From Spirochaetia bacterium (lineage in GTDB: Bacteria > Spirochaetota > Spirochaetia > SZUA-6 > Bin103), in assembly GCA_965203905.1 (NCBI GenBank), contig CBDBDQ010000005.1:4768001-4832000 (forward strand): a stretch of DNA of 64,000 nt. Direction: 5' to 3'. Shown here one piece after another: positions 12,750 to 36,461 of the stretch. The notes below the pieces were generated by a model, which searched no databases, had not been told where the DNA came from, and worked only from the letters and a program-made list of their open reading frames with translations. Position 1 is the first letter of the stretch, and every line of letters starts with the position of its first letter. The translations under genes and the position numbers were made by a program.

Positions 12750-13389
12750 GCCAATCGATTGTAACGAGAGACGATACAACTGCCCAGCCTATACTGGCGC
12801 AAGGAATTGCAGCCGGCGAATCGTCCAGAGTCGACGGCCAGTCGACGCCGCGCGACCCAGGGACCGATTGCCCGGCCACATCTGGTCTAATCGCGGCCGC
12901 GGCGGTCGACCGCAAGTCGATACGCCCGTCGAACCAAGCCGCAACTGACAAACGCTGGGAGCCGAAACCAGGGGCTCGGCGTGCGTGGTGGCGGGCACTT
13001 GGTCACGTTGCGCGGCAAGCGCTGGGAGCCGGCCGACGCGGATCCGCCCGGCCGCGAAGCTGCTTGGGTGCACGACATCCAGTCACGACATGGTTTGAGC
13101 ACCTGGAGCGGAGCCCGTCCGGCGTTTTAGGAAAGCGCGCTATGGTTCCAGTCTCACTGCTTTCGGAACAGCGCACGACGACGATACCAAGTCGCCCGTG
13201 ACACGCCCCGTCGCATTATGGAGCCGTCCAAGATGGCCCACTCATCGCTACGCCCTTGACCCGGCGCTCCAGCGGCTGCTAACGTTTAGGCGGTATGAAT
13301 GAATACTACCACGACGATAACGGCAGTTCCCGCATACTACTAGCTTTCGCTCCGCCCCGTATGGGCCGTTCGCCACAAGGCGGTTAACC

Positions 13390-14043
13390 ATGAGCCAGCC
13401 AGACGTAACCGCCCTCGTCGATAGTTTCATTGACTATGTGACGAAGATACGTGACCTAAATCAAATTATAGACGAACTGTTCCAGAATCCCTCCGCCCAA
13501 GACATCATGAACAACACCGCACCTAAATTCATGATGAAGATGAATGGGTTGGTCCTCAATTCCGTGATTGGAGCGATGAGTCGGATCACGGAACCCGCGA
13601 CGTCCCACGGGCACCAGAATCTCACTGTTCGAACAGTCGTGAAACGGCTAATATGGACCGATGGTCGAGGCTCTCAAGCGGAGCGAATAGCACAACGGTG
13701 CGACTGCTTTCATCAACAACTTAAGAAGGGCCGGGACAAACTGCTCGCCCATAATGATCTCCAGACCGCTCTTGCCGGTAAGCTGTTTCCGTTCCCACTC
13801 CCGCCAAGTATCGGCAAGGACGTAATCGTACAATTGGAGCTTCTCATCGAGCTAGCATCCGAGCAGTATGGATTATCCAAGGGACGTGTCGTCTTATGCG
13901 GTGACGAGCGGCAATTCATTAAAGCCCTGAATGATTCGTTGCTCTTTGAGCGCACTCTCAAGGATTGCAGACTACCGAGAGAGCTACGAAGCGACATGCT
14001 GGTGTGGAGATTAGAATCCGGCGAAAAACTTTTCGAAGCTTAG
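13390..14043 (+). CDS. HEPN domain protein, AbiU2-like
   Basis: Helical protein with RDKLLAH (Rx5H, HEPN-type) and SRITEP...NLTV; lower GC. Confidence 0.7.
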   Translation: MSQPDVTALVDSFIDYVTKIRDLNQIIDELFQNPSAQDIMNNTAPKFMMKMNGLVLNSVIGAMSRITEPATSHGHQNLTVRTVVKRLIWTDGRGSQAERIAQRCDCFHQQLKKGRDKLLAHNDLQTALAGKLFPFPLPPSIGKDVIVQLELLIELASEQYGLSKGRVVLCGDERQFIKALNDSLLFERTLKDCRLPRELRSDMLVWRLESGEKLFEA

Positions 14044-14202
14044 CGTACCGGGGCGCTCGCACGTCCGAGATGAACGAGTGGTGGCAGGAGTTCTTACTTC
14101 ACGCACGGCATGACCTTGGGCCTAACTCGGAGAGCCCAGTACTGATCGCCGTCGCCTTGGGCGGGAGGGGCGCGGTGGCTGGAGCTTTTCGAGTATTAGT
14201 AG

Positions 14203-15451
14203 GAGGTTCTTGCAAAAACTCTGTGAGCGTTGATGAGGAGTTGGGGACGCGATACCAGAGGACTGGATGGTAACCCGGCTTCGGCCGGGACGCCTTCAGA
14301 GCGTCGGCGGCGCCGCGAATCGGCCAGAATCGGCAGGTCATGCCACCTCCGTGACTGGGTGCGGACAGTACTGTGGCCTGTCTCCGGGAGATCAGCTTGG
14401 TCTCGCGCTACCGGATCGGAACGAGGATCGAGTTCAGTTCACCAGACGTAACAACTGATCCACGGTCAACGCCAGGACCCCGAACATCAGGTGGCACAGC
14501 ACCTTGCTGTGGCCGCGCACGCGTACCTGCCGGGCGCCGAACTCGTCCTTCAGCCGACCGTTGACGCGCTCCACCGTCGACCGCTCCCGGTAGCGCACCT
14601 CCTTGGCGTACGGTTGGCCGAGGGTGCGCTTCGCTTTCGCCTCCTGCTTCAGTGCCTGCTTGAATGCGGCACTGTTGTTGCGCGGATTGACACCTGCGGC
14701 AGATCGTCGAGTATCTCCGGCAGCGTCATGGTCTGCTGACGCTCAAGACGGCTCGGTTCCTTGGGCCGTTCCTCGCCCTTGCGCGGGCGTCCGCGCTTGC
14801 GCTTCGGCTTGGCTGGCTGCTTGGGCTTCGGCGTCGCTTTCTCGCGCCCCTCGATCGCCGTCGCATCGCGTGACACGTGGCCGACCAACTGCTCGGCCAT
14901 GGTGTCCTCGATCAGCGCCTGGTACAGGCGACTCGGCAAGGCACCCTCGGCAAACCCGGCAAAGGCCCGCGAGAAGGTCGCCTCGCTGGGCAGCGCGCCT
15001 CTATTCTCCCAGCCGCACAGACGGCGCAGCGCCTGGTCGTTGCCCAGCCGCTCGCGCAGCGCCCTGGTAGTGTCGATCCCGAACACCGCCTTGGCGATGA
15101 AGGCGCGCGCCAACGCCGCCCGATCCTGGCGCGGGCGCCCGCGCAGGGTACGACCGCACGACAGATGTCGTTCCACCCGGACGAACTCAAGCACGGTGAT
15201 GAACGACTGGTAGCGTTCTCCCAGGGGACCGAGGTCTTGCTCGAGGCTCGGGAACAGACACTCTTGAATGGTGCACCAGTAACTGGATAGTCTTGCGCGC
15301 AGGGACATGGCCGCTCCTCGCTCCCATCATGTGGGTTTGTGGTGAAACACATGGTATTACGGAGTGAGCCGGCCCGTCCCTGTTGAAGTCAGCCTCTGAC
15401 AGCCTCCCTCATCTCCAATTCCCGCTCTCTTGGGAATTTTGCAGGAGCCTC
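14203..15451 (-). mobile_element. Internally deleted IS (IS5/IS1182-like DDE transposase)
   Basis: Imperfect terminal IRs GAGGTTCTTGCAAAAACTC (14203) and, on the reverse strand, GAGGCTCCTGCAAAATTCC (15451), 14/19 identical. Confidence 0.75.
14434..15308 (-). pseudogene. Transposase with central deletion
   Basis: N-terminal part (GRPRQDRAALARAF...LRRLCGW...SRDATAIE) joined near 14690 to an out-of-frame C-terminal part (YRERSTVERVNGRLKDEFG...HLMFG). Confidence 0.8.
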
Positions 15452-16243
15452 AGGGGAAACCAGGGGGTTCAGCGTGGGGCTTCCGCGCTTGTTGACACGG
15501 ATCGAGGCGCATTGTGCATTGAGAGCGTAGGAACCTGGGCCGAAGGAAGCGCACCGATGTCAGATGAACAGAAAGAGCGCAGTACCCTGGGTGTAACGGC
15601 CTTTGGGGCGCGGAGGTTGGAGTCGGCATGGGCGTAGCTGTCGCTGGCACCCTACCGGTTGCACTGGCTGCGGGGACTGTCGGCATAGTTGGCGGCGGCG
15701 TGGTAGCACACGCCGTCCGGAGACGGCGGAATAGCAGGAAGAAGCGCCGGACCTCGGTCGTCGTTGCGCCGGAATCCCCGGAGCAGCGGCAGTTACAGAG
15801 ACAGCCTCCGACGAACCAGACTTTGGTAGCGTGGTCGGGATACCAGCTTAGACCTCGCAAGCGGCGCCGAACGGGTGACGATGACTACTTGCAGCGCGGC
15901 GAGAATCACGAGCCGTAATGCCCATGTTGCGAGCTCCCGAGTAGCGACGGTTCGTTCTCGAAGCGCTCTGTGATGGCCGTTCAGGAGTGAAGGCGCTGCA
16001 CTCCGGCACACGGCTTATCAGCTCAGCCCTTCGGCAACTGTAGCCGCGTACCCGCACGGGTGGTTCGCATTCCTTCCGTCTTCACCAACCTCCATTGCGA
16101 AGTGACCTGGAAGTCGTCCGTGGCGAACTTCCGGGCGTCGTAGGCAGAACGTCCGGAAGAGGGCGGTAGCCCCGGGCGCCACAGGCCCCTACTTACGCCG
16201 GGGTGAGAGCCTGGCAGTGCACCAACGCCCTCTGTGGGTTGCA

Positions 16244-16353
16244 GCGGTTTACGGTTTACGCCGATCCCCCTCTTCCCCAGTTCGTGCGCAATGTGTACGG
16301 ATACGTCGTTGACGAACTGGGGAAGACGTAAGAAACTGTAAACCGTAAACTGC
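16244..16353. repeat. Nested inverted repeats; candidate replication origin
   Basis: Outer GCGGTTTACGGTTTAC / GTAAACCGTAAACTGC (15/16). Inner TCTTCCCCAGTTCGT / ACGAACTGGGGAAGA (15/15). Lies 45 bp upstream of the helicase gene. Confidence 0.7.
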
Positions 16354-16398
16354 CTAAGTCCGCCGTCCGGGGAATGGTTGCGGTGGCAAGGAGCCCCA

Positions 16399-18468
16399 AT
16401 GGGGAAGGGCCGACACGCCGAGACCCTGGACCGCGAAGCTCTCTACGACGTGACCCCGCACGGGAATGCCAGCTACCTGCTGATGCAGTACGGCCGCCAG
16501 TTGCTCGTGGTGCGCAACGAGCAACTCTCGCACTCCGATCTGTACGTCCTGGACGACACCGGGATATGGCGCCGGGGTGACGAAGTGCTGCACGGATGGT
16601 TGCTCGAACGGGGCGACAGCCTGCGCAGGCAAGCGCTGCAGGAGGCACAGGACCAAAATAGGGACGAGAAGTCGCTGATAGGGGCGTTGCGCAGCATCCG
16701 CCCGCTGTTCGACCCGAGAGAGCTTCTGCCGCTGCGGAAGATCGCCGCCGCCTCGTATGCAGTGCTGCGCAAGAAGTACCAGAGCATTTCCGGGGGTGAT
16801 AATGACTTCGGCGTTACCCGATGCTTCGACCCCGCCCTGGACGCCGACCTGCAGTTTTTCGGGTGCGAGTCCGGGGTGATCGATCTGCACACCGGGAAGC
16901 TGCTCGCGCCCGAGGAAGGCAGGAAGCACCTGATCACCAAGCGAGCGCCGGTCAGGTACGCACTTGGCGCGAGCCACCCGGACGTCGACCGTCTGTTCGC
17001 GCACCTCCCGCCCGATCAACGTGACTGGTGGTGGCGGGCGCTTGGCTTCGCGCTCCGCGGCGTTCCATCCCGGCGTTTCTATGAGCTGAAGGGCCCGCCG
17101 GGCGGCGGCAAGAATGGCTTGATGCGGGCGTTGACTGGCACCCTCGGCCCCTACGCCAGCATCACCCAGGCGTCGCTCCTGGAGATGCGCCGGGGTGGTA
17201 GCAACGAAAGCGAGACGGGGCTTTCGCCGCAAGTCGTACACATCGTGCCACCGGTTCGCCTCGCCTTTGTCAACGAGGTGAAACCTACCAGGTTGAACCA
17301 CAGGATCCTGAAGGACTACTCCGGCGACGGGTTGGTCTCGTGGCAGCCAAAGAACAAGGACCCGCGCACCGACCCGGTGAGCGCCACACTGATCCTGCTG
17401 TGCAACCCCGGATCGCAGGCGCAGCTCGGCGGACACGACGAAGGCATTCGCGTTCGCCTCCGGGCGCTGCCGTACCCGGCGATCCCAAAGGACGCCGTGA
17501 TCGACGACTTCAACGACGTGCGGATCAAGGACCCTACCTTCAAGGAGGCCCTGTTCGCGCGCCTGGTCGCGGCCGCGGCGCATCAGCCGGTGGGCAAGCC
17601 CCCGGAGGAGCCGATCTCCATCAAGAAGGCTACGACCCAGCGCATCGTGGAAGACGTGGGCGAGATCGGTGTCTTCGCGGCACGGGTCGTTCGCGGAAGC
17701 GGCGTGCTCACCTCGCCGGATGTGTGGGCGGCTTGGTGCGAGCACAACGACGAGCCGACGGACGCCACGGAAGCCGGCGGCATCAGCCGCAACCGCCTCG
17801 GTGCACGTCTTCGCGAACACGTGACCGGCTTTCCGGAAAGGGCGTCGCCGTTGAAGCAAGGCGGCAAGAACGTGCGCGGCTGGCGTGGCTGGCGGCTGTT
17901 GACGGTGGAAGAGGCGGAAAACGAGACCGCCGCCCGACAGATTGTCGCCGATCTCCTGGCGGCCGTCCGGAAATGGGACCCGGACCAGATCGACAAGTGG
18001 ATTGCCCTGCTGCGCAGATTCGCGGAAGGCGAGATCATGGAATTCGATGGCCGCTTCTATATAAGTGCGCCGGCGTACTCGTACATGGAGAATGAAGAGG
18101 AACCGCCCGCCGCGTTCGAGCAAGCTTACAAGCGGTTGCTGCCGATGAGAGTGAGAACCGACAGTCATTCTATCGACTTAGAGACCGAAATCGCCATCGT
18201 GTTGGCCGAAAATTATCTGGTACAGGCGGCCTATAGGCTTCCTAACGATGCCACGGCTGAAGTTCTGGCCTCTGAGGCAGTCCGCCTGATGAAGGTCGGC
18301 ATGAGCACTACATCGGTGGAGTTCAGGTCAGCGGCGAAACTTCTCACGTCCGAACTTGAGAAGATTATCCAGAGGGTATGCAACGTTTCCGACAACGCCA
18401 TGCCCGACACGAAGGCAGGAGACCTGTTCAACGGCCAGCCGGCGCCAGCGGAACGCCTCGAACCGTGA
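16399..18468 (+). CDS. P4/D5-family SF3 helicase (no recognisable primase domain)
   Basis: D5_N-like SGVIDLHTGKL; Walker A GPPGGGKN; RLAFVNE; LKDYSGD; LCN; AAGGAG RBS. Confidence 0.85.
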   Translation: MGKGRHAETLDREALYDVTPHGNASYLLMQYGRQLLVVRNEQLSHSDLYVLDDTGIWRRGDEVLHGWLLERGDSLRRQALQEAQDQNRDEKSLIGALRSIRPLFDPRELLPLRKIAAASYAVLRKKYQSISGGDNDFGVTRCFDPALDADLQFFGCESGVIDLHTGKLLAPEEGRKHLITKRAPVRYALGASHPDVDRLFAHLPPDQRDWWWRALGFALRGVPSRRFYELKGPPGGGKNGLMRALTGTLGPYASITQASLLEMRRGGSNESETGLSPQVVHIVPPVRLAFVNEVKPTRLNHRILKDYSGDGLVSWQPKNKDPRTDPVSATLILLCNPGSQAQLGGHDEGIRVRLRALPYPAIPKDAVIDDFNDVRIKDPTFKEALFARLVAAAAHQPVGKPPEEPISIKKATTQRIVEDVGEIGVFAARVVRGSGVLTSPDVWAAWCEHNDEPTDATEAGGISRNRLGARLREHVTGFPERASPLKQGGKNVRGWRGWRLLTVEEAENETAARQIVADLLAAVRKWDPDQIDKWIALLRRFAEGEIMEFDGRFYISAPAYSYMENEEEPPAAFEQAYKRLLPMRVRTDSHSIDLETEIAIVLAENYLVQAAYRLPNDATAEVLASEAVRLMKVGMSTTSVEFRSAAKLLTSELEKIIQRVCNVSDNAMPDTKAGDLFNGQPAPAERLEP

Positions 18469-20543: not shown

Positions 20544-20882
20544 TTACGGCCGCCCCAGTTCCCCCGCTGACGCGCGTGGGAAGGTTGTGCAGGGCGCTTC
20601 CGGGAATGCCCAGTTCCGTCGCCCTCCCCGGTGCTGCCTGGTGAAGGAGGGCCGGTGCGCACGGCCGTATCTAACCGTCCAAGGATCCGTCCTCGGTATG
20701 GGGGTCACCACCCAGTCGAAGTCGCTGCTATAACCATCGGGTGCCGCCAACCGTTCTCGCCTCCTCGTCGGTCAGCGGTCGATTCCCATCAACGCCCCGT
20801 TCTGGACCTCGGAGACCCCTGCCGAGACCGGTGACGTGGCCCCGCCCGCCGCGCCTGTTCCGCAAATGACAGTCTACAGCGG

Positions 20883-21713: not shown

Positions 21714-22537
21714 TTCGTGTCCAGCGTCCCATGATGCGTCAGCAGCGCAGCGAGCGTCAAGTGAGCGGAGGCCGCGGTGTCATGACGGACGGGAGTTACC
21801 GTGTTGTTCGGTGCGGTGGTCGGTGGGCGCGATACTGGCCGTCCTGGATACCGCTGATCCGTGCGCAAGGGAGCATGGCAGGAGCCGGCCCGGAGGGTTT
21901 ATGGACCGGCACAGGCTGTTTGGTGCGGGTGTCGAAAGCGGCCATTAAGGACGCGGGATCGGTCGACGCCGCCCTCGCCCGGCGGTAACTGGGACATGCG
22001 TTTACGAGTGCCGTCATCTATACAGTTACAGTTGTAGTCGAACTCATCGTGAAGCACATCTGGGAACGAGAGCACCTTTCCGAACTTCGCCATCGAACTG
22101 ACACGCTGGGCAGCCGGTCGAAGGGTTATCAGGGATGGCCCGGCCTCGAACCGCAGATGAAATCCAGTTCGCGCGGGCAGTGAAGCCGGGAGCCGGTAGC
22201 TTCCGGGAACGGGTGCTCTGTCGCCTCCCGCCTCTCCCGCAAGATGGACTGGGGCTGCTCGACCCCGCTTGACGCCGCGGCGCCAGTCGAGGATGGTGGC
22301 GCCTGTGAGTGCCGAGGCAATCGCCATAGCTGGGGTCGGCGTGGCCCTGTTGGCCGTGCTGGTACCGCTGATCCGCTGATCCTGACCTTGCATGGCCGTG
22401 TAGTCGCCGAGTTGGGCGTGCTACGCCGCGACCTGCACGCCCTGGCGGAGCGGTTGCCCGCATCGGGGGTGCGGTTGACTGGCTCCTGACTGCCAGCTTG
22501 GCAGGGTGCCGGCGACCCCTAAATCTGAGGAGATACT

Positions 22538-24867: not shown

Positions 24868-27800
24868 AACTCAATACGTTGAAATGTAAGTTATTGAAGC
24901 CGTTATCCATTGCATTCTTGCTAATCGTATCCCCATTGTACTCCGACGATATTCGCTTTGTTCCCGTCCACGAATTAACCAATTTTAGGCCAATGGATGC
25001 CATCTACCACCCGCGTGACAACCACCGGTTGATGGTTCTCAATCAAGGTGGGCGAGTTGACATTTTTGACATCAATATCTGGAGCGAGCCTAAGAAGATC
25101 TTAGAAATCCCAACTGGAGCATATACTGTTGCGTTTAGTCCCGACGGGAAGCAGATCGTATCTGGAGCGGACGACGGAACTGTACGTATATGGAATGTGA
25201 ACGAAGCCGGAGGCATGCCTAACACGCTTGGTACCCATGATGGATGGATCTTTACTGTCGCGTTTAGTCCCGACGGGAAAAAGATCGTATCCGGAGGGCA
25301 AGACGGCAATGTACGTCTATGGAATGTGAACGACACTGTAGGAGTGCCTTACACGCTTGGTACTCATGACGGATGGGTCTCTACTGTTGCGTTCAGCCCA
25401 AGTGGCAGCCACATCGTGTCAGGCGGTTACGACAAGACGATGAGGATCTGGCACTTAGATTCCCCTAACACCGTAAGTGCGCCGTTAGCCGCACATGATA
25501 GCACTGTCCACAGTGTCGAGTTTAGTCCCGACGGAAACTTTGTCGTATCAGGTGATGCTTTCGGAGTCCTACAGTTGTGGGATGTTACCGACCTTGCTCG
25601 ACCTACGCTCGTAGGAATCCCCATCGAGGCTCATCGAGACGAATTATGGGATGTATCCTTCAGTCAAAATGGAGAATATATCGTCTCCGGAGGCAGCGAC
25701 GGAGCTATCCGATTCTGGTCTGTTGCCGATATCAGGAGCGGCAAAAAGGTAGTCGGTACGTTGATTGAGGGTCACAGATTCGGGGTCGGAAGTGTCCGCT
25801 TCAGCCCCGATGGAAACCGAATTATAACGAGCGGCGAGGATCGTACCGTGAGAGCCTGGGACGTCCATGGTATTGTCTCGATGCCCGGTTTTCTTGAGCA
25901 TGGTAGTTGGGCGACAACTGTCTCGTTTAGTCCGACTGGTGGATATATCGCGTCAGGTGGATACGACAACATAGTTAGACTGTGGGATGTCTCGGATTTT
26001 GCCGATGCTAGGCTAAAAGGAGAGTTGGAAGGGCACGAAGACGTGATAAACAGTCTTGCGTATAGCCCAAGCAGCAGCATAATTGCATCGGGCAGCAACG
26101 ACGGGTCGATCATTCTTTGGAACATCGAAGACATTGAGAAACCGAGAGCTATGGGCGAACCGATTTCAGGAGATAAGTTTTACGTAAACGCTGTTGCGTT
26201 CAATCCGGATGGAACGCACCTTGCATCAGGAGGAACTGCCGGTATTCGACTGTGGCATGTGGACGAGGGCCGATTGACCGAGACGTGGCGCGATGCGCAT
26301 GACGCCTGGATAACGGCCGTCGCATTTAGTTCTGACGGAAAGTATCTTGTGTCGGGATGCGACGAAGGGCTCCTGCGACTGTGGAGCGTAGAGGACGTCC
26401 ATAATATTAGGCAAATTGGCACTCCTTTGTCGGCGCATTTTGGAGTTCGGAGCGTGGCCTTCCATCCCGATGGAAAGCACTTCGTGTCTGGTGGAGATGA
26501 CGACCAAGTGTTGATGTGGAACGTTGACAAGATTGAAGCCGGAGATGGCCGTGGCAGCCCAATCCCGGGACATGGAGGCGAGATTCTTAGTCTGTCGTTT
26601 GATCGGCAGGGTACGTATCTCTTGTCAGGTGGTTATCAGGGTGATCTGGGATTATGGGACTTCAAAAAAGGACGGAAGATCAGCGTACCAACCGAGGGAC
26701 ATAGAAGTTGGATTCAGAGTGTCGCGTTCAGCCCAGACGGACGTCATATGGCCTCGGCCGGAGGAGATGGTACGATACGATTGTGGCGATTGGGTAACGG
26801 CACCAGTGCTGGCGGCCCACTGAAGAACCTCAGCGGACTGATGAGGAACGTGGTGCTAAGTTCGACCGGTGATCAAATTGTTTCAATTAGCGAGCGTGGT
26901 GTCGCTCGCCTATGGCGTTCGGACGGCGTTAGGTTGCTAGGTGCCACCAAAGTGACTAGCGCGGAGTTTAGCCACGACGACACGAGGTTGTTTTTGGGAC
27001 GAGACAACGGTGCGGTGGAGATCTGGGACACAGATAGTGCGACGTACGTGGGCGAGGCACTGGGCGGTCCGAGGAGCGCCGTGAACAGCATAGCCGTGGG
27101 CCCGGAAGGGAAGCACGTTGTGTCAGTGCGCCGTGATGGTTTAGCGATACTCTGGGACGTGGACAGCCTCTCATCTACGGATCACGAGGCCGCCATCGAA
27201 AGCGCCGCGTTCAGTCCAGATGGCACGCGTGTCGTCCTAGGCACCAACGACGGCACGGTACGGCTGTGGGACGTCAGAGTCCGAGATCGAGTAGGCGGAG
27301 CCGGCGAGGGACATCATGGTCCCGTTGAGAGCGTGGCGTTCAGCCCGGATGGAAACCACGTCGTGTCAGGGGGCGAGGACGGGACAGTCCGTTTATGGGA
27401 GGTCAATGATTTGCGCCTCTCAGGCGGCCTACCGATCGGAAACCACTTCAGGAGCGTTTGGAGTGTCGACTTTAGTATCGACGGGGAACGGGTGGTTTCA
27501 GCCGGCCATGACGGGAACGTTAGAATATGGGAGCGAGATGGTGAACAGATGGTACAATCAGCAGTTATTTGCGGGAGTGGATATCGTGAAATACGCTCTG
27601 TGAATTGGATAGCGCCTAGTGCGATCATAGTGGGCTGCCGCGATAGGACCGTGCTCTTGAACTCTAGTCTTGGACGTACGGGAGAGGTTTTTGTACTCCG
27701 AGAGGGGCTTGTAGCGACGATTGAGGGGCACGGTGTGTATGCATCACCGCCGAACCTAAAAGACAAGATAACTGCTTTCATCGGATCCGAAGATCAGGGC

Positions 27801-29336
27801 GTCGCAGACGTTATATCAGATCGACAAATGCAGCACTATCTGTTTGGGAGGTCAGACCCATGGTTGATCATCGGCACGACCACGGAAAGGGCAATAAACA
27901 AAGTCGTTGAGTTTCATAGGAGACTTGGAGTCTATTCGGTAGGCCTGTGGCTCCTGCTGGCGGAAATTATCGGAGTGTTGGCAGTAGTCACCGCGTGGCT
28001 ATTTTGGCCCGCGAAGTTGGCTTGGTGGTCGATGCCAAAGGCTGGCAGCAGACATGCGGTACTTGAGATCTTTGAAGATAGCAGTAATCCGGTAACTGCG
28101 CGGCTGTCTGGTGTCGTTAGATTGCTTACTTTATTCCATGTACTAGGTCGCACGAAACGTCCCTTGGTAAAGTGGCTACAAGAGAGTCGTCCGGAGATCG
28201 AAGAAAGATGTTTCACTGACCGAACTCAGGTGCGCGAGCGTGCCAATTATTGCTCCGTTGGAAATGAGGACGATACAGCAAGATTCTTAAGCCATCTCGA
28301 CGCCAATGAACGTGGGCTAATTTGGATATTGGGTGCTGGTGGCACTGGCAAGAGTGCGCTAGCTATTCACGTAGCCGGTGAGACCCTCGTGGGGAACACC
28401 AACAGACCGATTCCGTTATATATTGGTGAGGACTGGAAGGGATCACTTGCTGCGCAAGTGGCCCGCTACTTGCGAGGTCCCAATTGGACCAGAGGGCCGA
28501 CTGAAAATATGGTCAAGACGCTCGGGGCTTTGGGTCTAGTCTGCCCATTGGTAGATTCATTGAGCGAGCGGAGCGACGAGGCTGGAACATCGGTGAAGAG
28601 TGCGGTGTTGGAGCACGACTTCAGACACGTTATAGTGACGTCTAGGAGAGAAGTGCACGATGAGCAGTTGGAACAGATAGTGGAGTCCATTGAAGTTCAT
28701 CAACTAAAACGTGCTAACATACTACCGTTTATTGAGTCATACCGAGATTACTACCGCATCGATGTAGGATCGGAGGAGGTGAGGCGAAGAATTCAACCGC
28801 TCTTCGACGACGGTAGGAACATGCCTAGCCCTCTATTTCTTCGCTTCGCCATTGCGGAGGCCACGGCGGGGCCGGTGGGTGTGATAGATAATATGACCCT
28901 CGTGTTGAGGTATATGGAGGCGCTGCGCGCTGATAAGATAGATATTCGTAGCGAGGACATGGAGCGAGCGGCGGGAGTGGCAGCGATTAGGGCCGTTCAA
29001 GACAGGTTGATACCGGGTGAAGTCTCCGTGTCGGAATTACGAGAGACGCTAATGGCTGAGATCAACTCAGATGAGTTCTACGACGTGGCGGGAAAGGAGT
29101 CAATACGTCCACCGGAGGTTGTTAACTTGTTGGTGGAATCGGGGCTCTTGGTGCGTTGGTCAAATACCCTTCAGTTTACATACGATCCAGTAGCGGAATA
29201 CCTTGCCGCGTGGTGGGTGAGAAGAACACGCCGTGGCAATCTTGAAGGCCTGCGCAGTCGCATAGAGCGTGCGGCTAATACGGGTGTGGGGCGCGCTTAT
29301 CAGGAGGTAGCGGTGGCACCGCGACAGGCTATCTAG
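24858..29336 (+). CDS. Signal peptide-WD40 (~21 repeats)-TM-STAND/NACHT NTPase
   Basis: Repeats of GH...VAFSPDG..IVSG.D..VRLWD; TM GLWLLLAEIIGVLAVVTAWLFW; Walker A GAGGTGKS; Walker B LVDSLSE; VTSR; SPLFL; FTYDPVAEYLAA. Confidence 0.9.
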   Translation: MVVKLNTLKCKLLKPLSIAFLLIVSPLYSDDIRFVPVHELTNFRPMDAIYHPRDNHRLMVLNQGGRVDIFDINIWSEPKKILEIPTGAYTVAFSPDGKQIVSGADDGTVRIWNVNEAGGMPNTLGTHDGWIFTVAFSPDGKKIVSGGQDGNVRLWNVNDTVGVPYTLGTHDGWVSTVAFSPSGSHIVSGGYDKTMRIWHLDSPNTVSAPLAAHDSTVHSVEFSPDGNFVVSGDAFGVLQLWDVTDLARPTLVGIPIEAHRDELWDVSFSQNGEYIVSGGSDGAIRFWSVADIRSGKKVVGTLIEGHRFGVGSVRFSPDGNRIITSGEDRTVRAWDVHGIVSMPGFLEHGSWATTVSFSPTGGYIASGGYDNIVRLWDVSDFADARLKGELEGHEDVINSLAYSPSSSIIASGSNDGSIILWNIEDIEKPRAMGEPISGDKFYVNAVAFNPDGTHLASGGTAGIRLWHVDEGRLTETWRDAHDAWITAVAFSSDGKYLVSGCDEGLLRLWSVEDVHNIRQIGTPLSAHFGVRSVAFHPDGKHFVSGGDDDQVLMWNVDKIEAGDGRGSPIPGHGGEILSLSFDRQGTYLLSGGYQGDLGLWDFKKGRKISVPTEGHRSWIQSVAFSPDGRHMASAGGDGTIRLWRLGNGTSAGGPLKNLSGLMRNVVLSSTGDQIVSISERGVARLWRSDGVRLLGATKVTSAEFSHDDTRLFLGRDNGAVEIWDTDSATYVGEALGGPRSAVNSIAVGPEGKHVVSVRRDGLAILWDVDSLSSTDHEAAIESAAFSPDGTRVVLGTNDGTVRLWDVRVRDRVGGAGEGHHGPVESVAFSPDGNHVVSGGEDGTVRLWEVNDLRLSGGLPIGNHFRSVWSVDFSIDGERVVSAGHDGNVRIWERDGEQMVQSAVICGSGYREIRSVNWIAPSAIIVGCRDRTVLLNSSLGRTGEVFVLREGLVATIEGHGVYASPPNLKDKITAFIGSEDQGVADVISDRQMQHYLFGRSDPWLIIGTTTERAINKVVEFHRRLGVYSVGLWLLLAEIIGVLAVVTAWLFWPAKLAWWSMPKAGSRHAVLEIFEDSSNPVTARLSGVVRLLTLFHVLGRTKRPLVKWLQESRPEIEERCFTDRTQVRERANYCSVGNEDDTARFLSHLDANERGLIWILGAGGTGKSALAIHVAGETLVGNTNRPIPLYIGEDWKGSLAAQVARYLRGPNWTRGPTENMVKTLGALGLVCPLVDSLSERSDEAGTSVKSAVLEHDFRHVIVTSRREVHDEQLEQIVESIEVHQLKRANILPFIESYRDYYRIDVGSEEVRRRIQPLFDDGRNMPSPLFLRFAIAEATAGPVGVIDNMTLVLRYMEALRADKIDIRSEDMERAAGVAAIRAVQDRLIPGEVSVSELRETLMAEINSDEFYDVAGKESIRPPEVVNLLVESGLLVRWSNTLQFTYDPVAEYLAAWWVRRTRRGNLEGLRSRIERAANTGVGRAYQEVAVAPRQAI

Positions 29337-29338
29337 CT

Positions 29339-30337
29339 ATGCAGTCCACCATACCGGACCTACTTGTGCAGATCTGCAAGCTCGGTGGAGTCTTATGGAC
29401 TGCGGCTTTTGGCATAATGGGTCTGCTGGTGACGTTTCGCGATGAGAGAACGCAACGAGTCACCAAATGGGGCCGCATAGCACTATCAGGTATTGTCGTT
29501 TCGACCACTCTTGGTGTCGTGGGTCAGCTTCTTGAACACACCCTTGAAATAGAGAGCCTTTCCGAGAGTGTTGGACGGCAGGAGAAAATACTTCTCGAGA
29601 TCAATCGCCAGAATCACTCGTTCACTGCTGACGCCCAGATCATTACAGCTCTTCGGTTTCCTAAAGACCATCCGGTGACCAAGGAATATCTTGATGACTG
29701 TCTTGATAACTGCCTCATGCCGCTCTTTAACGACATCATAGAGGAGTACGGTAATCGAGGTAGTTGGTACAATCCGAAATATTCGCAGATCTACGTTGAT
29801 GGACATACTGGTCCCGAAGGAAATCAAGTAGATAAAATCTGGCTGCCAGTTCCTCATGACATATTATTTCCGAAGGAAGCCATTAAAGTGTCGCTAGAAG
29901 TTGGAGTCTACGAAGGATCTGTATCCGTCAATGACGTGGACCTTTCGCTCCCTGCCTCTGCTGGTAAACCATACTCTGAGGTTTCTTTCGCGCTGTCCTC
30001 AAATCGTCTCGAAGCAGGCCGCCTACACTACTTTCCGAGCCGCGAGATCTTCGTGTTCGAATTCCGAGCACCTCCAGGCCATATACGCACGGCATTCGCC
30101 CCGATGAGCATCCTAGATCTTCAGGATAAATTGCTCGTCGTCGGCATCCTCGGAGAGGAAAATGCGACGATTTCATTAGTCGGCATACAGTTCAGGCTTT
30201 CTTCTGGAGTTGCCGTGACAATTGGAAGTGAGGCATTCGAAGCTACCTCGAATTCCTGGCCGGATGTGTCGCACTTCGCGGTTATTGACGATCTCGATCA
30301 AACGGGGCAATGGCCGGTCGAGTACATACTGCCATGA
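29339..30337 (+). CDS. Hypothetical protein with two N-terminal TM helices
   Basis: Two hydrophobic helices flanking RVTKWGR; starts 2 nt after the STAND stop. Confidence 0.8.
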   Translation: MQSTIPDLLVQICKLGGVLWTAAFGIMGLLVTFRDERTQRVTKWGRIALSGIVVSTTLGVVGQLLEHTLEIESLSESVGRQEKILLEINRQNHSFTADAQIITALRFPKDHPVTKEYLDDCLDNCLMPLFNDIIEEYGNRGSWYNPKYSQIYVDGHTGPEGNQVDKIWLPVPHDILFPKEAIKVSLEVGVYEGSVSVNDVDLSLPASAGKPYSEVSFALSSNRLEAGRLHYFPSREIFVFEFRAPPGHIRTAFAPMSILDLQDKLLVVGILGEENATISLVGIQFRLSSGVAVTIGSEAFEATSNSWPDVSHFAVIDDLDQTGQWPVEYILP

Positions 30338-30400: not shown

Positions 30401-30429
30401 ACTTCCGATAATACCGCCATCTGTCAACC
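30401..30429 (+). promoter_or_regulatory. dif-like recombination site candidate
   Basis: ACTTCCGATAA-TACCGCC-ATCTGTCAACC; related copies at 20596, 22199, 22865, 31327, 32350 and 35761. Confidence 0.55.
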
Positions 30430-30784
30430 CGGCGCCGGCTCGCCCGCGTGCTCCCACACTTCAAGCCTTCGACCCGGCACCCTATCAAATCTGCATACTA
30501 CATTTGGAGTGGATGTACTATGGAATATTCGTGTATTTTGGCGGGCAAAGACTGTCTTTATGACGAATCATGGTTCCGCGCGCATGATGTCGGCGCAAAG
30601 GCCCTTCCGGCACCGAGCACGGCCGGCGTATGACGGGTCCGTATTGCTCGCCGTGCCGCCGATCTCATACTATTTGAGGACCATGCGAGATACTAATGAA
30701 ACCGCCGTCGAGCTATGCTTGAATGCGCTACATGCCGCTGTAGCGCAAGCCCTTGATACGAGAACTGCGGATGGTAGTCGCCGG

Positions 30785-31261
30785 ATGCACCGTCTACTCG
30801 CCGTGGCCGCGCTACTGATGGTTCTGGCCGTCGCTTCGCCCGCCTACAACCCGCCACCAGAGGGTTGGTTAGTAACGATCCGCGAGTACAGCGACCCGGA
30901 TTCGGTGTCCTATTGGATTGACGTAACCGGAGACTGCATCGATCAGGATACAGCCAACGATTTGGTTGAGTCCGAGATGGTGCGCAACCGTATCACGAAC
31001 GAGTACACCGGGCTTGCTCTGAACGTGGATGTGATGTGCCTGGCAACGGGGGACGGTTCGTGGGTGTACCACGTGAGGCCCTTTCTCCGGCGTTGGGAGC
31101 GGTTCGGCGAGCTTTTCGTTTTCTGGGACATATCTCTCAACCGAGCCACGATCGGGATAGCGGACACGGTCAAGACCATTGAGGATACCGTTACAGAAGC
31201 CGTGCGAATCGCGCTCACCGACTTCATCTACGCCCACAGTCAAGGGGTAGATTCAAACTGA
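30785..31261 (+). CDS. Secreted hypothetical protein
   Basis: Signal peptide MHRLLAVAALLMVLAVASPA. Confidence 0.65.
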   Translation: MHRLLAVAALLMVLAVASPAYNPPPEGWLVTIREYSDPDSVSYWIDVTGDCIDQDTANDLVESEMVRNRITNEYTGLALNVDVMCLATGDGSWVYHVRPFLRRWERFGELFVFWDISLNRATIGIADTVKTIEDTVTEAVRIALTDFIYAHSQGVDSN

Positions 31262-31326: not shown

Positions 31327-31355
31327 ACGTCCGAGAACCGGGCACTCTGTCGCCT
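31327..31355 (+). promoter_or_regulatory. dif-like recombination site candidate
   Basis: ACGTCCGAGAA-CCGGGCA-CTCTGTCGCCT, just past the stop of the dead recombinase. Confidence 0.5.
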
Positions 31356-31373: not shown

Positions 31374-32236
31374 TCAGGGCGCCTGGTACGGAACGGTCAT
31401 CACGGGTGCCGGTACCTCGGGCCTGCCCTTCGTCTGGGCGGCGAGTTGCTGCCTCTCCAGCTCGGTCAAGTACGTCCGGCGTAGATCGTTCGGGGTCACC
31501 GGGTCGACGCCTGCCTGCTTGGCGATGGTGCATACCCGCAGCATCACGGCTTGGTCGGTCATGGCCTTCGTCTGGATGCGCCCGCCCCTGACCGGGCACA
31601 GCAGGGCCCCTGACCAGTCGCCGCGGATCGCGATCCAGGCGTCGATCGCTTCCTTGCCACCGTCTGTCGCGTAAATCTGCCGCACGTCGTGGCGTACGGT
31701 GATGGCCCCGGACATCTGGTCGTAGTCCGCGAGCAAGAGCGCGGCTGCTTCCGAGCGCCGCAGGCCGGCGCCGTAGAGCAAAGCGAGCATGGCTACATCC
31801 CGTGCGCCGACAGGATCGGTACCGGGCGCCGCGAACAAACGCCGAACCTCGCCCCGTTTGACGTATCGTCCTCCACGTCGGCGCTGTTGCGGCTTCTCGT
31901 TCCGCTCGTCCTCGACAGCGATCCGCGTCTTGTCGTCTACCAGCCCGAGTTCCTATGCTATGCGCACCGTACTCCGGACCCCGAAAGCATGTGGTTGACG
32001 GTGCCGGCCGCGACGCCGCGGTCGACTATTACCGAGCGCAGCTTCTGGACCTGCTGCAGGTCTATCTGCGACCAGTCGAACACCGTCGCATCTGTGATGG
32101 CCTCGTCAGTGAAGATTGCGACCGCGCGGTCGAGTTCCCGGCGCATGCTGCGGCTCCCGGACGGGAGGAGGCCGTCGAGATAAACGGCGGCGGGATTCTG
32201 GTCGCTGGGCGCGTCCGACTCGTCCGTGGCTTTCAC
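31374..32236 (-). pseudogene. Inactivated tyrosine recombinase, paralog of 1..771
   Basis: NPAAVYL...TVNHMLS; PVGARDVAMLALLYGAGLRRSE; frameshift near 31980; in-frame TAG near 31953; GKG-K loop missing; HxxR changed to NDLR. Confidence 0.85.
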
Positions 32237-32349
32237 TTCGGCAGCTCCAGAAGCTCGCTACCGTGGCGCTCGATAGGCTCTGCCACCGTCTCAGTATCGC
32301 CCCGTTTTCGCGAAAGCACCAGGCCAATCCCCCCAGCCCACCCAGCCCG

Positions 32350-32378
32350 ACCTCCGATAAACTGCCCTACTGTCAACT
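32350..32378 (+). promoter_or_regulatory. dif-like recombination site candidate
   Basis: ACCTCCGATAA-ACTGCCC-TACTGTCAACT, abutting the MTase stop and upstream of the dead recombinase. Confidence 0.55.
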
Positions 32379-32379
32379 A

Positions 32380-33888
32380 CTAGAGTCTCGGTCTCGGGCG
32401 GCGTCGATCACGCAAGAACGCCGACGCTCTGTCGTCGGCGCCTATCTCTTGAGCAACTGCTAACAGGTCTAGCCGGCCGAGTAACCCCACCGTGATCGGT
32501 CGCTTCGAGTCCCAGAACACGAAGGCGCGCAGCAGCTCCTGGGCAGGCCCACAGTGTAGTAAGCTCTGTACGTAGACCGCCTCGGCTTTCGACTCACAGG
32601 GTACAAAGTAGCATGTGTCGTCCAATACAATCGGCTTGCCCTTAAACGAGCCGACCACTCGGAAGTTAAGGTTCTTGTAGAAGCCGGAGATGGCAACCCG
32701 CCAAGGCGCGAAAGTGTATGCTCCCACGCCAAACACCGAGAAGCGGGGTCGACCCCGATAGATCGTGCTACCGCGACGGTCTAGCCGATCAGCATGCCCA
32801 CAGAGGTACTTCCAAGTCTGGGGAGCTTCAGATTTGATCCGATTGGTGTCGCCCCCGATCGCCGACTGAGTGACCAGCATCCATCGCTTAGGCTCGACCA
32901 CAGTTCCGTTCGCTACTTCGGAACTCTTCAACATCGGATATAGGAACCGACGCTCAAGGTGCACCTCTTCTCGGAAGCCATTCACGTACGTGTTTGGACC
33001 GCAACGGCGTAGCTCCATGACCTTCGAGCAATCGTGCTTCACGCCGGAGCGCCACTGGTAGCGCTGCGAGCCAGTCAAATGCTTCCACGTCTCATAAAGC
33101 TGTAGGTCCGCCACGAGCTCTCCGCCCCGAAGCCCGAACCGTGATGAAGGGGCGGCAGCTTCAAGAGAGTCGTAGACCGCACATTCGACTTCTCCATGCC
33201 GACGTGAACCCGAGACGACGAACAAGCACGCGTCGACCGATGCTCCAAAGTGCTTGAAGGCATCGATACAGCGCACTTCCGCACCTCTAAGCCGATGTCC
33301 GTGATTCCAAGCGTAGCGCAGGACCCTTCGAACCACCGCAACCTTACAGAGAATTGCGAGGCTGGCTTCCTGTCCCTGGATCCACTCCAAGGCGCGCAGA
33401 AGCATCCACTCGGAAATGTCGAAGTTGCTCTTTCCCGTGAGGGCATCGAGCCCGCGATGACCATGGAAGTTCGTCTTTTTGGGGAGATTAGAGCTTCCTA
33501 TGCGTGTAATCTCGGCGCTCGTAACCCAGGGCGGATTCCCGAGAACCAATAATGGTTTAGGGAGTCCTACGAGCACCTCATCCCAATCTGTTTGGAAAAA
33601 ATCGGCTTGGCGGATCTGCGTATCCGTAACAGAGTGGGACTCGCGGAGGAGACGCTGGGCCTTGGTAACATGCTGAGGATTGATTTCGAACCCAAGTAAC
33701 CTTTGCGCGGACGGGAACGCCCGAATGGCAGCATCTAGAAAGGCCCCTGTGCCGCACGTGGGCTCAAGGACGCTAGAAGGACGGAAACCGCGGCCGACCA
33801 GAAGCGAGCATACGCGGCTGGCCAGGGACCGCGGCGTCTGAAAATCGCCGAGCTCAGCTCTGACTCTTGAGTTTACCTCAGAAGCCAA
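32380..33888 (-). CDS. Type II N6-adenine DNA methyltransferase, NspV-like
   Basis: GDFQTP, LEPTCGTGAF, GNPPW; adjacent to a cognate endonuclease. Confidence 0.88.
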   Translation of the reverse strand: MASEVNSRVRAELGDFQTPRSLASRVCSLLVGRGFRPSSVLEPTCGTGAFLDAAIRAFPSAQRLLGFEINPQHVTKAQRLLRESHSVTDTQIRQADFFQTDWDEVLVGLPKPLLVLGNPPWVTSAEITRIGSSNLPKKTNFHGHRGLDALTGKSNFDISEWMLLRALEWIQGQEASLAILCKVAVVRRVLRYAWNHGHRLRGAEVRCIDAFKHFGASVDACLFVVSGSRRHGEVECAVYDSLEAAAPSSRFGLRGGELVADLQLYETWKHLTGSQRYQWRSGVKHDCSKVMELRRCGPNTYVNGFREEVHLERRFLYPMLKSSEVANGTVVEPKRWMLVTQSAIGGDTNRIKSEAPQTWKYLCGHADRLDRRGSTIYRGRPRFSVFGVGAYTFAPWRVAISGFYKNLNFRVVGSFKGKPIVLDDTCYFVPCESKAEAVYVQSLLHCGPAQELLRAFVFWDSKRPITVGLLGRLDLLAVAQEIGADDRASAFLRDRRRPRPRL

Positions 33889-33891
33889 GTG

Positions 33892-34608
33892 TCACCTCAC
33901 CCGCAAGATGCCGTCGACACTGCCGGCTTCTGTGATTACCCGACTATACTGCAGTCTCCACTGCAGTGCATTCGAGATCGTAAGATATCCGATGTCGGGG
34001 GGACACGCGAGAACTTCTTCGGCGAGACGGTTCGCCTCGATCTCGTCCACGGGGAGCATCCGTTCAGAGAAGAAAGCCAGGACGTCATCTGCGTTCCCGT
34101 TATTCGCGACGATCCGCCGGATGCCTGTAGTGGTCTGGAAATCCGCAGTGCGCTCGGCCTTTACGAAAATCGTGTGGAGGATGTTGAGCCGGGCGGTGCG
34201 AGTCTCGCCGTCATCCGTCTTGTTGTACACGAATACGAGCAGTGAGTAGCCGAGCCCATAAAGCTTCTGTCGCGCAGACTCGTAGGGACAGGAAGATTGC
34301 GGCTGCCGATAACTGGTGACCTTGAGGTCCACACATATCTCCGGGAAGTCGATTCCTTTCGCCGAACTCCCCTCTTTGTAAGTGTAGCGGCGGTTAAGAA
34401 CCTCTTGGAACTTGTGCTCTAGGTAGGTCCCGACGGCCTTGCCGTCAGTTACTCCAAACAGCGACGGTTCTTGGTGATCAGATTCGCTCTCAGCGAAAGC
34501 GCGGGCCTCCCGGCAGAGCAGATCAACAGTCAACTCTTGTTTGGTCAGAACAACTCCTCCGCGTGTATCGTCGCAGACGACTTGTGTTGTCGAGTTCTCC
34601 GGTGCCAC
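33892..34608 (-). CDS. Type II restriction endonuclease, NspV-like (true start probably ~34550)
   Basis: GVTDGKAVGTYLEHKF...GIDFP...DLKVTS.RQPQSSCP...LTISNALQWRLQY, recalled from memory as close to R.NspV. The TTCGAA specificity is an inference. Confidence 0.85.
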   Translation of the reverse strand: MAPENSTTQVVCDDTRGGVVLTKQELTVDLLCREARAFAESESDHQEPSLFGVTDGKAVGTYLEHKFQEVLNRRYTYKEGSSAKGIDFPEICVDLKVTSYRQPQSSCPYESARQKLYGLGYSLLVFVYNKTDDGETRTARLNILHTIFVKAERTADFQTTTGIRRIVANNGNADDVLAFFSERMLPVDEIEANRLAEEVLACPPDIGYLTISNALQWRLQYSRVITEAGSVDGILRVR

Positions 34609-34789
34609 GCACGACGATCATACTGTTTTCAGCAGTCGGCGTAAAGAGGGTGCGAATCGCTGGAATTCGTGAGCCCCACCGGGGCGCGGTCATAGCAAGT
34701 CCACGACATTACGTCCAGCGGCTTCGCGAGGCCACTCCGAGCGCCGGTAGCGCGGAGGCGCCGCGACCGGAACGTCTAGGTTCTGCGAG

Positions 34790-35601
34790 GTGGCAGTATG
34801 GGGACGACGCTAAAGGACGGGCCGAGACCTACCGGCGAGACGGCTCGTGTTCCCGATCGATGTGCTCAGTGACGCTGAGGTACGGTTAGTCTACGCCTAC
34901 CTGGAGGCGGCAGAGGCAGAATCGGCTACCGATCCAGAGGGCGCGCGCGCGTTCCTGCGCACTATCTGTTGCCATCGCTCGATGCGTTGGTACGCAACGA
35001 GAAGTTGCTGGCGGCCGCCTCCCTGTTGCTCGGTCCCCGATCTGCTCGTGTGGAGCGCGGACCTGTTCATCAAGAAGGCGCATTCGCCCATGACTGTAAC
35101 CTTGCATCAGGACCTAACCTACTGGGGGCTGGACGACACTGAGGAGACTACCGGACGGGTGCCGCTGTCACCGTCGAGGGTCGACAGCGGCTGCATGCGT
35201 TTCGTCCCAAGGTAGTCACCGGCGCCGAATCTTGCCGCATGTCGATACGTTAGCGGCCGACAACCTGCTCAGCCGCGGCCAGGAGGTCGCCGTAGAGGTT
35301 GACGGACACGATGCAGTTGCAGTCAAGCTGCAGACTGGGCAAGCCTCACTGCACCACGACCATCTGTTTCATGCGTCCAGACCCGACAGCACCGGTGATC
35401 GCCGCATCGGTGTGGCGATTCGCTTATCAAGCCTTCGATGAGCCAGCGTACCGGGGAGCGCCGGATGGTCAGACTGGCGAGCGGATCGGACCGCTACGGG
35501 CACTTCGATCTCGCCGGTCCACCGCGGGGGCGATTGGACGAGGCGGACTTCGAGCGTTGTCGGCACGACGTCGAGGTCAGGCGTCGGCAATTCTACGCTT
35601 A
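34790..35601 (+). pseudogene. Phytanoyl-CoA dioxygenase (PhyH) family pseudogene
   Basis: HQDLTYW, GCMRFVP, HDHLFHAS...DRRIG with stops and frameshifts. Confidence 0.8.
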
Positions 35602-36461
35602 GAGAGGGTGGTTCTGTCGGCCCCGTGGCGTCCGCGGTGTGGGAGACTCCGGCTTGACGCCGCAGCGCCAGTCGGCGGTGTGGTACCGGCGGTGGTAGTG
35701 TAACCGCCCCGGATCACGACCGGAGCGCGGCGTTCGCCGAGGCGGCACACGCCAGCCGGGACTTACGGTAAAGGCGGTTCCTGCCGCTCCAGGGCGCAAG
35801 CTGCCGATGATAACAACTGAACGCGCACTACATGCTCTCGATTCGCTCCTGCGATAGCTTGATGAGGTCGTACAAGATGGGTCGTAGATCTGTTTTCCGC
35901 CGATCCGTGTACGTTGATTGAGTAGCGTTGGAGGGCGGCTATTATGACCTCCGGCGATTCGCCGTTCTTCAACCTTAGCAACGCCGCGTGCAATAGAGTC
36001 AATAGCTTGATCAGGGGAGCCTCGAAGTACTAAGTCTGATCGGGTATGGCGCGTGCATCGCTTTGACTTCCCGGGACTGGCCGCCGTCCTTGTAACGGCT
36101 GTCGTGGCTTTCGTCGCCTGCGCCCAGAAGTCCAGGTAGGAACGAGACGAGATTCTGCGATCGCTCGCCGGAAGGCTCGATAGCATTGAGTTGAAGGTCG
36201 AGGCGCTGGATGACGCGATGCCCCAAGGGTTTTGTGAGATCGGGCAACGGGTTTGATCGCTTGGGTACCAAGGTGAATCGCCTGGATGCCAAGGTGGATG
36301 CTGTCAGCGACGGCTTGCAGGACCTACGCCGCGACCTCGAGTCGCACGGCATGCTTCCGCCGTCCGAGGCAGTCGGATGATCGCGGCTGGGGCGCGGTGG
36401 GCGACCGGGAGAACCTAGTAGAATCGACCCCTGCGCCGGCCAAACAACTCAGTCTGCGCCA

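Follow-up and report, generated by a model that had tools for sequence, protein, structure and literature searches.

Seven dif-like sites, all on the plus strand, mark the edges of gene modules of 0.7 to 7.5 kb in a plasmid-like, integrative element of a Spirochaetia bacterium. They lie in a 64,000-nucleotide (nt) stretch, G000:C5:4768001-4832000 (the window). The assembly has 66% G+C and comprises 7.99 Mb in five contigs, C5 being the main one (7.79 Mb). The pattern of sequences on either side of the sites makes it probable, in our judgment, that Xer-type site-specific recombination inserts and exchanges modules there.

Each site consists of two 11-bp arms around a centre of 6 or 7 bp. Site 1 (20596..20624, 11+7+11, centre TGCCCAG) is followed by site 2 (22199..22226, 11+6+11, CGGGTG), site 3 (22865..22892, GGGCGC), site 4 (30401..30429, TACCGCC), site 5 (31327..31355, CCGGGCA), site 6 (32350..32378, ACTGCCC) and site 7 (35761..35789, AGGCGGT), the last being the weakest, with a decayed right arm. 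An earlier note on this DNA had listed these seven plus-strand strings, and all of them are present where it placed them. It had also described the motif as a dyad. Between the left arm and the reverse-complemented right arm only 4 of 11 positions agree, and the motif is in fact an asymmetric 11+6/7+11 arrangement.

A two-block weight matrix (11, a gap of 6 or 7, and 11) was built from six sites and used to scan both strands of the main contig. When each site was left out in turn, the held-out site ranked between 9 and 14 among about 15.6 million positions for six of them (sites 2 and 4, rank 9; site 3, rank 11; site 5, rank 13; sites 1 and 6, rank 14, with a score of 23.5 for site 1), and 55 for site 7. 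A refined matrix gave sites 1 to 7 scores of 27.3, 28.7, 35.4, 34.4, 29.0, 30.0 and 22.5; these are its seven matches in the window, and the runner-up there (24423, minus strand) reaches 15.8. With the same genome read in reverse as a control, the excess of the motif in the whole genome holds at high scores (32 matches versus 1 at 20 or above, 26 versus 0 at 24 or above). At 12 or above the counts are near the control (113 versus 84), so the weak matches are noise; below about 16, genome and control are close. Of the matches so counted, 25 had served to train the refined matrix, which weakens these totals, and leave-one-out is therefore the clean, unbiased test. The seven plus-strand sites are genuine, and chance falls far short of explaining them.

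The best match of the matrix in the genome is C5:5579639, which has the same arms around the centre TGTATA. We read it as the chromosomal dif because of the shared arms, its near-single copy number in the order, its position on the skew curve and the presence of a canonical Xer pair. The cumulative GC skew of C5 is lowest at 1.51 Mb and highest at 5.81 Mb. C5:5579639 is 0.23 Mb from the maximum, within the interval that runs from there to the position opposite the minimum (about 5.40 Mb). Two canonical Xer genes stand side by side at C5:6458135-6461180, their products scoring 298.5 and 270.6 bits against the XerD model, below its cut-off of 329.6. The dif core pattern was present in 37 of 41 genomes of the order in one scan and in 36 of 41 in another. 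Counted from both scans, a copy whose 6-bp centre is A+T-rich (TGTATA, TCTATA, TATATA or close to these) exists in about 38 of the 41, and this copy is single everywhere except in G009, which has two. A control pattern read backward gave 0-2 matches per genome. Extra copies with G+C-rich centres are many in G000, few in G001, G003, G005, G006 and some others, and absent from most relatives.

The claim that the sites are dif-like is upheld by both arms. The left-arm consensus of the array sites equals the left arm of C5:5579639, and the right arm is identical to its counterpart over the inner 7 nt. Xer sites are described, in the part of the published account that we draw on, as having a conserved ATAA-centre-TTAT at the cleavage borders (PMC11705084). 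Most sites here keep ATAA, and the right border is TTCT, the same as in this organism's own dif. The 20-letter core of site 3 is identical in G001.

Two relatives have other arrangements of dif-like sequences. In G009, which belongs to the same genus, the two dif copies are co-oriented and 36.5 kb apart (G009:C1:845476-882033), both with the centre TGTATA and one with a single right-arm change. The segment between them has an open reading frame (ORF) for an AAA_25 helicase, 62% like one in a G001 element, and looks like an element inserted at dif. At G032:C286:7221-7722 there are four dif-like sites with 7-bp centres, forming two inverted pairs within 500 bp.

The earlier note had proposed a second subtype of site at 13310, 34610, 35803 and 24219-24247. 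These places score from -6.8 to 3.0 with the dif matrix, versus at least 22 for the real sites, and agree with one another at only 8-17 of 28 positions; we do not retain the subtype. The only fair left arms among them are at 24247 on the minus strand (12.0) and 35800 on the plus strand (8.8), and the first of these (24237..24247) is an orphan, its right arm scoring -16.4, with no full site. The string GATAACAAC has 11 copies in the genome and 10 in the control. The pattern CGATAA-N15-ACTACTAG, said to be common to 13310 and 32350, does occur at both places (window 13310-13343 and 32355-32383); it was picked post hoc, with 2 copies in the genome and 0 in the reversed control. What precedes the AbiU2 gene at 13310 may be the decayed remains of a site. 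Without the second subtype, two of the proposed cassettes have other limits: the block with the WD40 gene is 22865-30401 rather than 24219-30401, and that with the restriction-modification pair is 32350-35761 rather than 32350-34610.

A genome-wide scan found about 30 further copies, clustered and co-oriented. All seven sites of the window array are on the plus strand, as are all six at C3:69868-80257; the eight at C4:42280-52656 are all on the minus strand, and C5:1902275-1916103 has three on the minus strand and one on the plus strand. The remaining copies in G000 are a few lone sites outside arrays. Among the 28 strong sites the centre has 6 bp in 16, 7 bp in 11 and 5 bp in one, with a mean G+C of 0.69. 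Every centre is unique within its array. Identical centres are found only between arrays (GACTGC and GAGTGC) and at both ends of the recombinase block on C3, no exchange between them having been observed directly.

Sequences on the two sides of a site assort independently. We compared the 100-nt flanks of 37 sites (28 in G000 and 9 in G001), with the threshold at the 99.5th percentile of a left-against-right null. Flanks were shared in 71 of 666 pairs, the left one only in 31, the right one only in 33 and both in 7, so that sharing was one-sided in 64 of the 71. The recurrent module on the left is the 3' end, with the stop codon, of an ORF for a membrane/coiled-coil protein of about 80 amino acids; two kinds recur on the right, a promoter-like block and, from the opposite strand, the 3' end of a short recombinase gene. 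The left flank and left arm of site 7, for example, are 92% like C3:77838-77896 by BLAST, and a conserved promoter-like block begins 34 nt downstream of site 2. This block, together with a frameshifted copy of the small ORF, occupies 22261..22483 on the plus strand (TTGACG, 17 nt, GATGGT, 7 nt, GTG), as seen in an alignment of eight copies and in BLAST matches to C4, C5 and G001. From its layout, TTGACG/GATGGT is a putative promoter. Placement of the sites at cassette edges, which the earlier note had suggested, is borne out: they separate gene blocks whatever the orientation of the genes and mark junctions of flank exchange.

One such junction is contiguous in two places and split in the window. 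At C3:71660 and C5:1916103, the end of the small ORF, a site and the 3' end of the recombinase gene follow one another directly. In the window, the small-ORF end (a remnant at 22836..22864 on the plus strand, with its TGA stop inside GAGCGACCTGCC) runs into site 3, which forms the left junction, and the right junction is site 5, from whose right arm the recombinase end begins. The gap between them is 8.46 kb and contains a transposase remnant, the WD40 operon, a 250-amino-acid ORF and the extra site at 30401. Such a split junction is what an insertion into a site would be expected to leave behind.

Exchange between arrays is indicated by a comparison of C3 with the array at 1.9 Mb of C5. The backbones are collinear and 78-89% alike, and the arrays share only the recombinase block (96%) and a 495-nt block (97.8%); since the shared array blocks are more alike than the backbone, recent exchange is indicated. 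The recombinase block on C3 (71645-72669) starts 15 nt before the site at 71660, and its other end is a left half-site (72668) whose centre, GACTGC, is that of site 71660 too. At C5:613400-613790, another frameshifted copy of the small ORF ends in GAGTGACCCGCC and the first 7 letters of a left arm, after which the sequence is unrelated; this half-site looks as if a crossover or deletion had fallen inside a site.

Two families of Xer-like recombinases accompany the arrays. The canonical integrase of the element is encoded at 1..945 on the minus strand, its gene extending beyond the start of the window. It has the motifs RRSE, GKGRKER, HDLRR and LAGH..TTQRY, is 27-36% identical to the host Xer proteins, and has further copies on C3, at 1.93 Mb of C5 and in G001. 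The short family, 43% identical to the canonical integrase, is present in the window as a broken copy at 31377..32233 on the minus strand (two frames, one TAG); the sole intact copy in G000, of 294 amino acids, is at C3:71740-72621. In all 12 aligned sequences of the short family, Q, K or L occupies the Arg-I position, the GKGxK loop is cut down or substituted so that the hairpin Lys is absent, and a 16-residue stretch that holds LAGH..TTQRY, with the His and the nucleophile Tyr, is deleted; the His position is N, or K in one of them. The catalytic residues are kept in 5 of 5 canonical relatives aligned. The C-terminal L..VPY is invariant in the short family, which has it in common with the active one. 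With dN/dS values of 0.32-0.60 among the G000 copies and about 50 clusters, at 56-83% identity, from metagenome assemblies, the short recombinases are, on alignment evidence, a real and conserved family. The window copy had been called a dead recombinase. It is indeed broken, but not merely broken, since the whole family is without the catalytic residues.

The short gene is encoded about 50-90 nt from a site. In six copies that keep the conserved 3'-end block of the gene, a site lies 18-57 nt before that block (C3:71660, C3:73228, C5:614965, C5:1916103, C5:5362778 and window 31327). Another copy, C5:5354351-5355165, has no site beyond its 3' end; on the 5' side there is a decayed one. The 92 genomes of the order that were searched gave the short family in G000 only, and the canonical family in G000, G001, G012, G018 and G020. 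In G012, the canonical relative (C1:1808692-1809528) is 5.5 kb from dif (1803189), with no second site in 60 kb. A search of a genome-contig collection gave no relative of the short recombinase, and a plasmid collection gave only integrases of at most 36% identity. A metagenome scan returned 80 loci, nearly all of them relatives of the canonical integrase (at most 50% identity), with 0 consensus sites in 563 kb; this site scan is uninformative because the dif of those hosts may differ and because the arrays here are 13-35 kb from the integrase.

We propose that the sites are copies of the chromosomal dif in which the A+T-rich 6-bp centre would have been swapped for varied, G+C-rich centres of 6-7 bp, and that they divide the accessory region of the element into modules. 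A circular or co-integrated DNA with one site would recombine with a resident site, and insertion of the module would leave one site at each junction. Exchange would occur between arrays or replicons where centres match. Since all centres differ within an array, neighbouring sites would not recombine and the array would be stable. Acinetobacter dif modules and elements that exploit Xer have been shown to follow this logic. The match of both arms to the host dif would make host XerC and XerD the likeliest binders, and the element integrase and its catalytically dead short paralogue may participate or regulate. The analysis establishes that the sites exist, resemble dif, form arrays, have independently assorting flanks and include a split junction; the role of Xer, the direction of recombination and its present activity are inferred.

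Several observations weigh against this proposal. Binding by host Xer proteins is deduced solely from the identity of the arms. The window array, at 4.79-4.80 Mb, is about 0.8 Mb from dif at 5.58 Mb, so the island does not represent classical insertion at dif. The edges of the 495-nt block that C3 and C5 have in common do not coincide with sites: it opens about 330 nt beyond one site and stops about 150 nt short of another. Many sites have the same 30-60-nt left flank or promoter-like right flank around unrelated cargo, for which simple core-to-core exchange is insufficient. Contigs C1-C4 match the main contig over long stretches at 97-99%. They may represent strain variants and not plasmids; a mixture of such variants in the assembly is probable and agrees with its contamination figure of 7.9%. 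If C3 and C4 are such variants, the arrays are not fully independent of one another. No excision or circle junctions were seen in contigs of three sequencing runs from one study over window 18500-38000, where all sites are covered in the reference arrangement; such contigs hide rare variants. Three joints with intervening letters resemble other sites, two of them placed at the C4 sites 45356 and 44124 and the third unplaced. All traceable joints came from paralogous loci, and the contig search is no evidence either way.

The element's own recombinases might use the sites instead of host XerCD, with the integrase cleaving and the dead paralogue filling the second arm as an architectural partner, so that one strand pair would be exchanged and unlike centres tolerated. 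The presence of a site 18-57 nt from the 3'-end block of six short genes would fit such a partnership, as would the invariant L..VPY tail, the dN/dS range and the many metagenomic clusters of the short family, and the canonical integrase is in the backbone of three of the four arrays in G000. However, the arms equal those of the host dif, whereas the integrase is a distant relative of the host Xer proteins. The C4 array has no copy of either recombinase family, G005 has extra G+C-centred sites yet its best match to this recombinase family has E = 1.2e-4, and the short-gene copy at C5:5354351-5355165 has no site past its 3' end. The absence of consensus sites around the 80 metagenomic integrase relatives also speaks against it, with the limit that those hosts may have a different dif. 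We consider this explanation unlikely. A further reading, which strikes us as still more doubtful, would see here a gene-capture platform that arose from the dimer-resolution system independently of integrons. A non-catalytic, site-linked recombinase-like family that kept its DNA-binding and partner-docking parts, and the site-linked small membrane/coiled-coil protein, would steer host XerCD or the element integrase into a one-strand, division-independent exchange. Circular modules would thereby be inserted between unlike centres, producing stable, co-oriented arrays of defence and other genes.

Alternatively, the sites could now serve chiefly as operators or segregation sites, relics without present mobility to which the dead recombinase-like or host Xer proteins bind to control downstream promoters. 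The same promoter-like block does follow six sites at 5-34 nt, the short family is conserved despite its lost catalytic residues, and the contigs of the three runs gave no excision joint. But 22 of the 28 strong sites have no such block, the window sites at 20596, 31327 and 32350 are at the 3' ends of genes on the opposite strand, and both the flank assortment and the split junction require past recombination at the sites; we give this reading little credence. An integron-like system, with folded single-stranded attC-type sites, an integron-type integrase and a co-oriented cassette array, would account for co-oriented sites every 0.7-7.5 kb or so beside a tyrosine recombinase gene family, and the earlier note had drawn this analogy. 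Several tests contradict it. The integron-integrase model TIGR02249 gives 17.4 bits for the short recombinase and 32.4 for the window integrase versus a cut-off of 265, and NF011946 gives 23.7 for the window integrase versus 435. None of the seven site regions, folded as single-stranded DNA, does better than shuffles (z-scores from -0.59 to +1.51), a search of the whole window with Rfam gave 0 matches, the arms are not inverted repeats, and genes lie on both strands, some with their own promoter-like block. We regard an integron-like system as extremely improbable. Of the platform that the earlier note had envisaged, likened to dif modules or to integrons, the dif-like sites, the flank-exchange junctions and an Xer-like integrase in the element remain; the integron analogy, the second subtype and a rule of defence cargo do not.

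Among known systems, the dif modules of Acinetobacter plasmids are similar in several respects. As described in the portions of the literature consulted, many dif-like 11+6+11 sites cut the accessory region of those replicons into small modules (PMC13141974, PMC11705084), similar backbones carry differing modules, and neighbouring spacers differ, with exchange expected where spacers match. Identity or near-identity of spacers allows recombination between the Acinetobacter sites, and cointegrates are the route by which modules move (PMC13141974, PMC11705084). In contrast, Acinetobacter sites alternate between C/D and D/C, whereas sites in the spirochaete arrays are co-oriented (7/7 in the window, 6/6 on C3, 8/8 on C4), and 11 of 28 spirochaete centres have 7 bp. 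The host here belongs to the Spirochaetia, is uncultured and has a high G+C content. Its element has a backbone with SSB, RadC, HTH_36, a P4-type primase and its own Xer-like integrase instead of Rep_3/OrfX, a cargo that includes a restriction-modification pair instead of antibiotic resistance genes, and a dead recombinase family beside its sites.

Integrative mobile elements exploiting Xer (IMEX), for instance those of the VGJ type, are double-stranded elements with one dif-like site whose centre is not that of dif; as far as the consulted text of one review goes, they insert so as to produce two flanking, co-oriented sites, and successive insertions build arrays (PMC5357621). The VGJ attachment site is 29 bp long, the length of the 11+7+11 sites here (PMC5357621). 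Unlike these elements, the window array is not integrated at dif, from which it is some 0.8 Mb away, although G009 does have two dif copies, 36.5 kb apart; the spirochaete element encodes its own canonical tyrosine recombinase, and its modules are single genes or operons rather than phage genomes. In the single-recombinase modules xerS-difSL and xerH-difH, an Xer-like gene adjoins its site as a unit, according to the same partial source (PMC5357621). The adjoining spirochaete protein differs in having no catalytic Arg, Lys loop, His or Tyr, and the spirochaete site has the arms of a two-recombinase host dif. Integrons resemble the arrays in that co-oriented sites separate small, mostly uncharacterised cassettes beside a tyrosine recombinase; they differ in that the spirochaete system has no IntI-type integrase and no folded attC, has genes in both orientations, and has sites derived from dif.

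The element backbone in the window extends over 1223..18468 and encodes SSB, RadC, two DUF6197 proteins, a helix-turn-helix replication-initiator-like protein (HTH_36) and a P4-type primase. The part homologous to three other copies in G000 reaches to about 10033. Those copies are at C3:56-64 kb, C5:1.926-1.933 Mb and C4:2.5-6.5 kb, the last without the integrase, and each adjoins a site array; backbone proteins are 62-95% identical among the four copies by BLASTP of the ORFs. A related element in G001 has three sites after its primase. No match to Rep_3 was found among the 69 window ORFs scanned.

The first 49.8 kb or so of the window form a mosaic island of lower G+C. Synteny with G007 and G001 starts again at an aminotransferase gene at 49.8 kb. 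The left end of the island was not found, as the 20 kb upstream of the window are unlike the G007/G001 region beside the aminotransferase gene, and direct repeats that might mark the ends gave matches of 12-18 nt only, which is the chance level. At the right edge of the island (window 49213-49290) is a stretch of about 75 nt with dozens of copies in the genomes of relatives, above all in G010 and G004; it may be a repetitive extragenic palindromic (REP) or miniature inverted-repeat transposable element (MITE)-like sequence. Farther on, a low-G+C ABC-transporter/dehydrogenase block (window 53400-58800) interrupts the core genes when compared with G007 and G001, and an AIPR/AbiU gene (window 59555-61216) likewise interrupts them (aminotransferase, PhyH, sulfotransferase, GNAT).

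The modules themselves are diverse. That between sites 1 and 2 (20596-22199) has an ORF of no known family, and that between sites 2 and 3 (22199-22865) the frameshifted small ORF; Pfam supports neither of the names previously given to these two, HEPN for 20883-21713 and Mrr_N-like for 22199-22865. The 7.5-kb block from 22865 to 30401 contains a transposase remnant, DDE_Tnp_1 (23443..24138, minus strand, Pfam 1.8e-14), followed at 24858..30337 on the plus strand by a 1492-amino-acid WD40-repeat protein and a 332-amino-acid partner ORF (Pfam WD40 families; PADLOC HEAT-ARM_XIII, 5.1e-60). An internal direct repeat of 147 nt with 84% identity lies in the WD40 gene (window 25124-25399). Between 30401 and 31327 is the 250-amino-acid ORF (30509..31261, plus strand), with no match in Pfam, NCBIfam, PHROGs or PADLOC, and between 31327 and 32350 the dead recombinase. 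The last module, 32350-35761, has on the minus strand (32380..34608) a type II methyltransferase (32380-33888; PADLOC MTase_II, 8.6e-150) and a restriction endonuclease (33892-34608; REase_II, 9.6e-102), with NCBIfam NF052465 at 1.5e-102. Past 35761 come a RES-domain gene and an Hma system, with no more sites (best score 9.4). The Hma-like defence system (window 37350-48405) comprises an HmaA-like SNF2/PLD helicase, an HmaB-like DUF1156 methylase and an HmaC-like DUF499 ATPase, and between its parts are an ApeA/PDC-S58 gene (43508-44776) and a DUF7680 gene (44930-45436). The cargo of the other arrays includes an RNase T-like exonuclease, an M28 peptidase, pentapeptide and PEGA proteins and numerous proteins of no known family. 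Description of the cargo as defence genes is therefore only partly apt: it is clear for the type II pair in the window and is not a rule, because other arrays carry mixed accessory genes.

In the parts of the literature consulted, dif-site modules are almost only those of Acinetobacter plasmids, where they spread antibiotic resistance (PMC7399989, PMC13141974, PMC11705084), and Vibrio, with a few other proteobacteria, supplies most of the known elements that exploit Xer (PMC5357621). Titles and abstracts on such elements concern Vibrio, Legionellales, Enterobacter and phages; among the titles and abstracts covered, none mentions arrays of dif-like sites in Spirochaetia or arrays with a dead Xer-like family. 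If our reading is correct, the host's universal dimer-resolution site would have been borrowed for gene shuffling in an unrelated phylum. The layout would also differ, with direct repeats, G+C-rich centres of both 6 and 7 bp, and a cargo of restriction-modification and other accessory genes. The site-linked, catalytically dead Xer-like family is a concrete candidate factor for controlling or redirecting Xer recombination.

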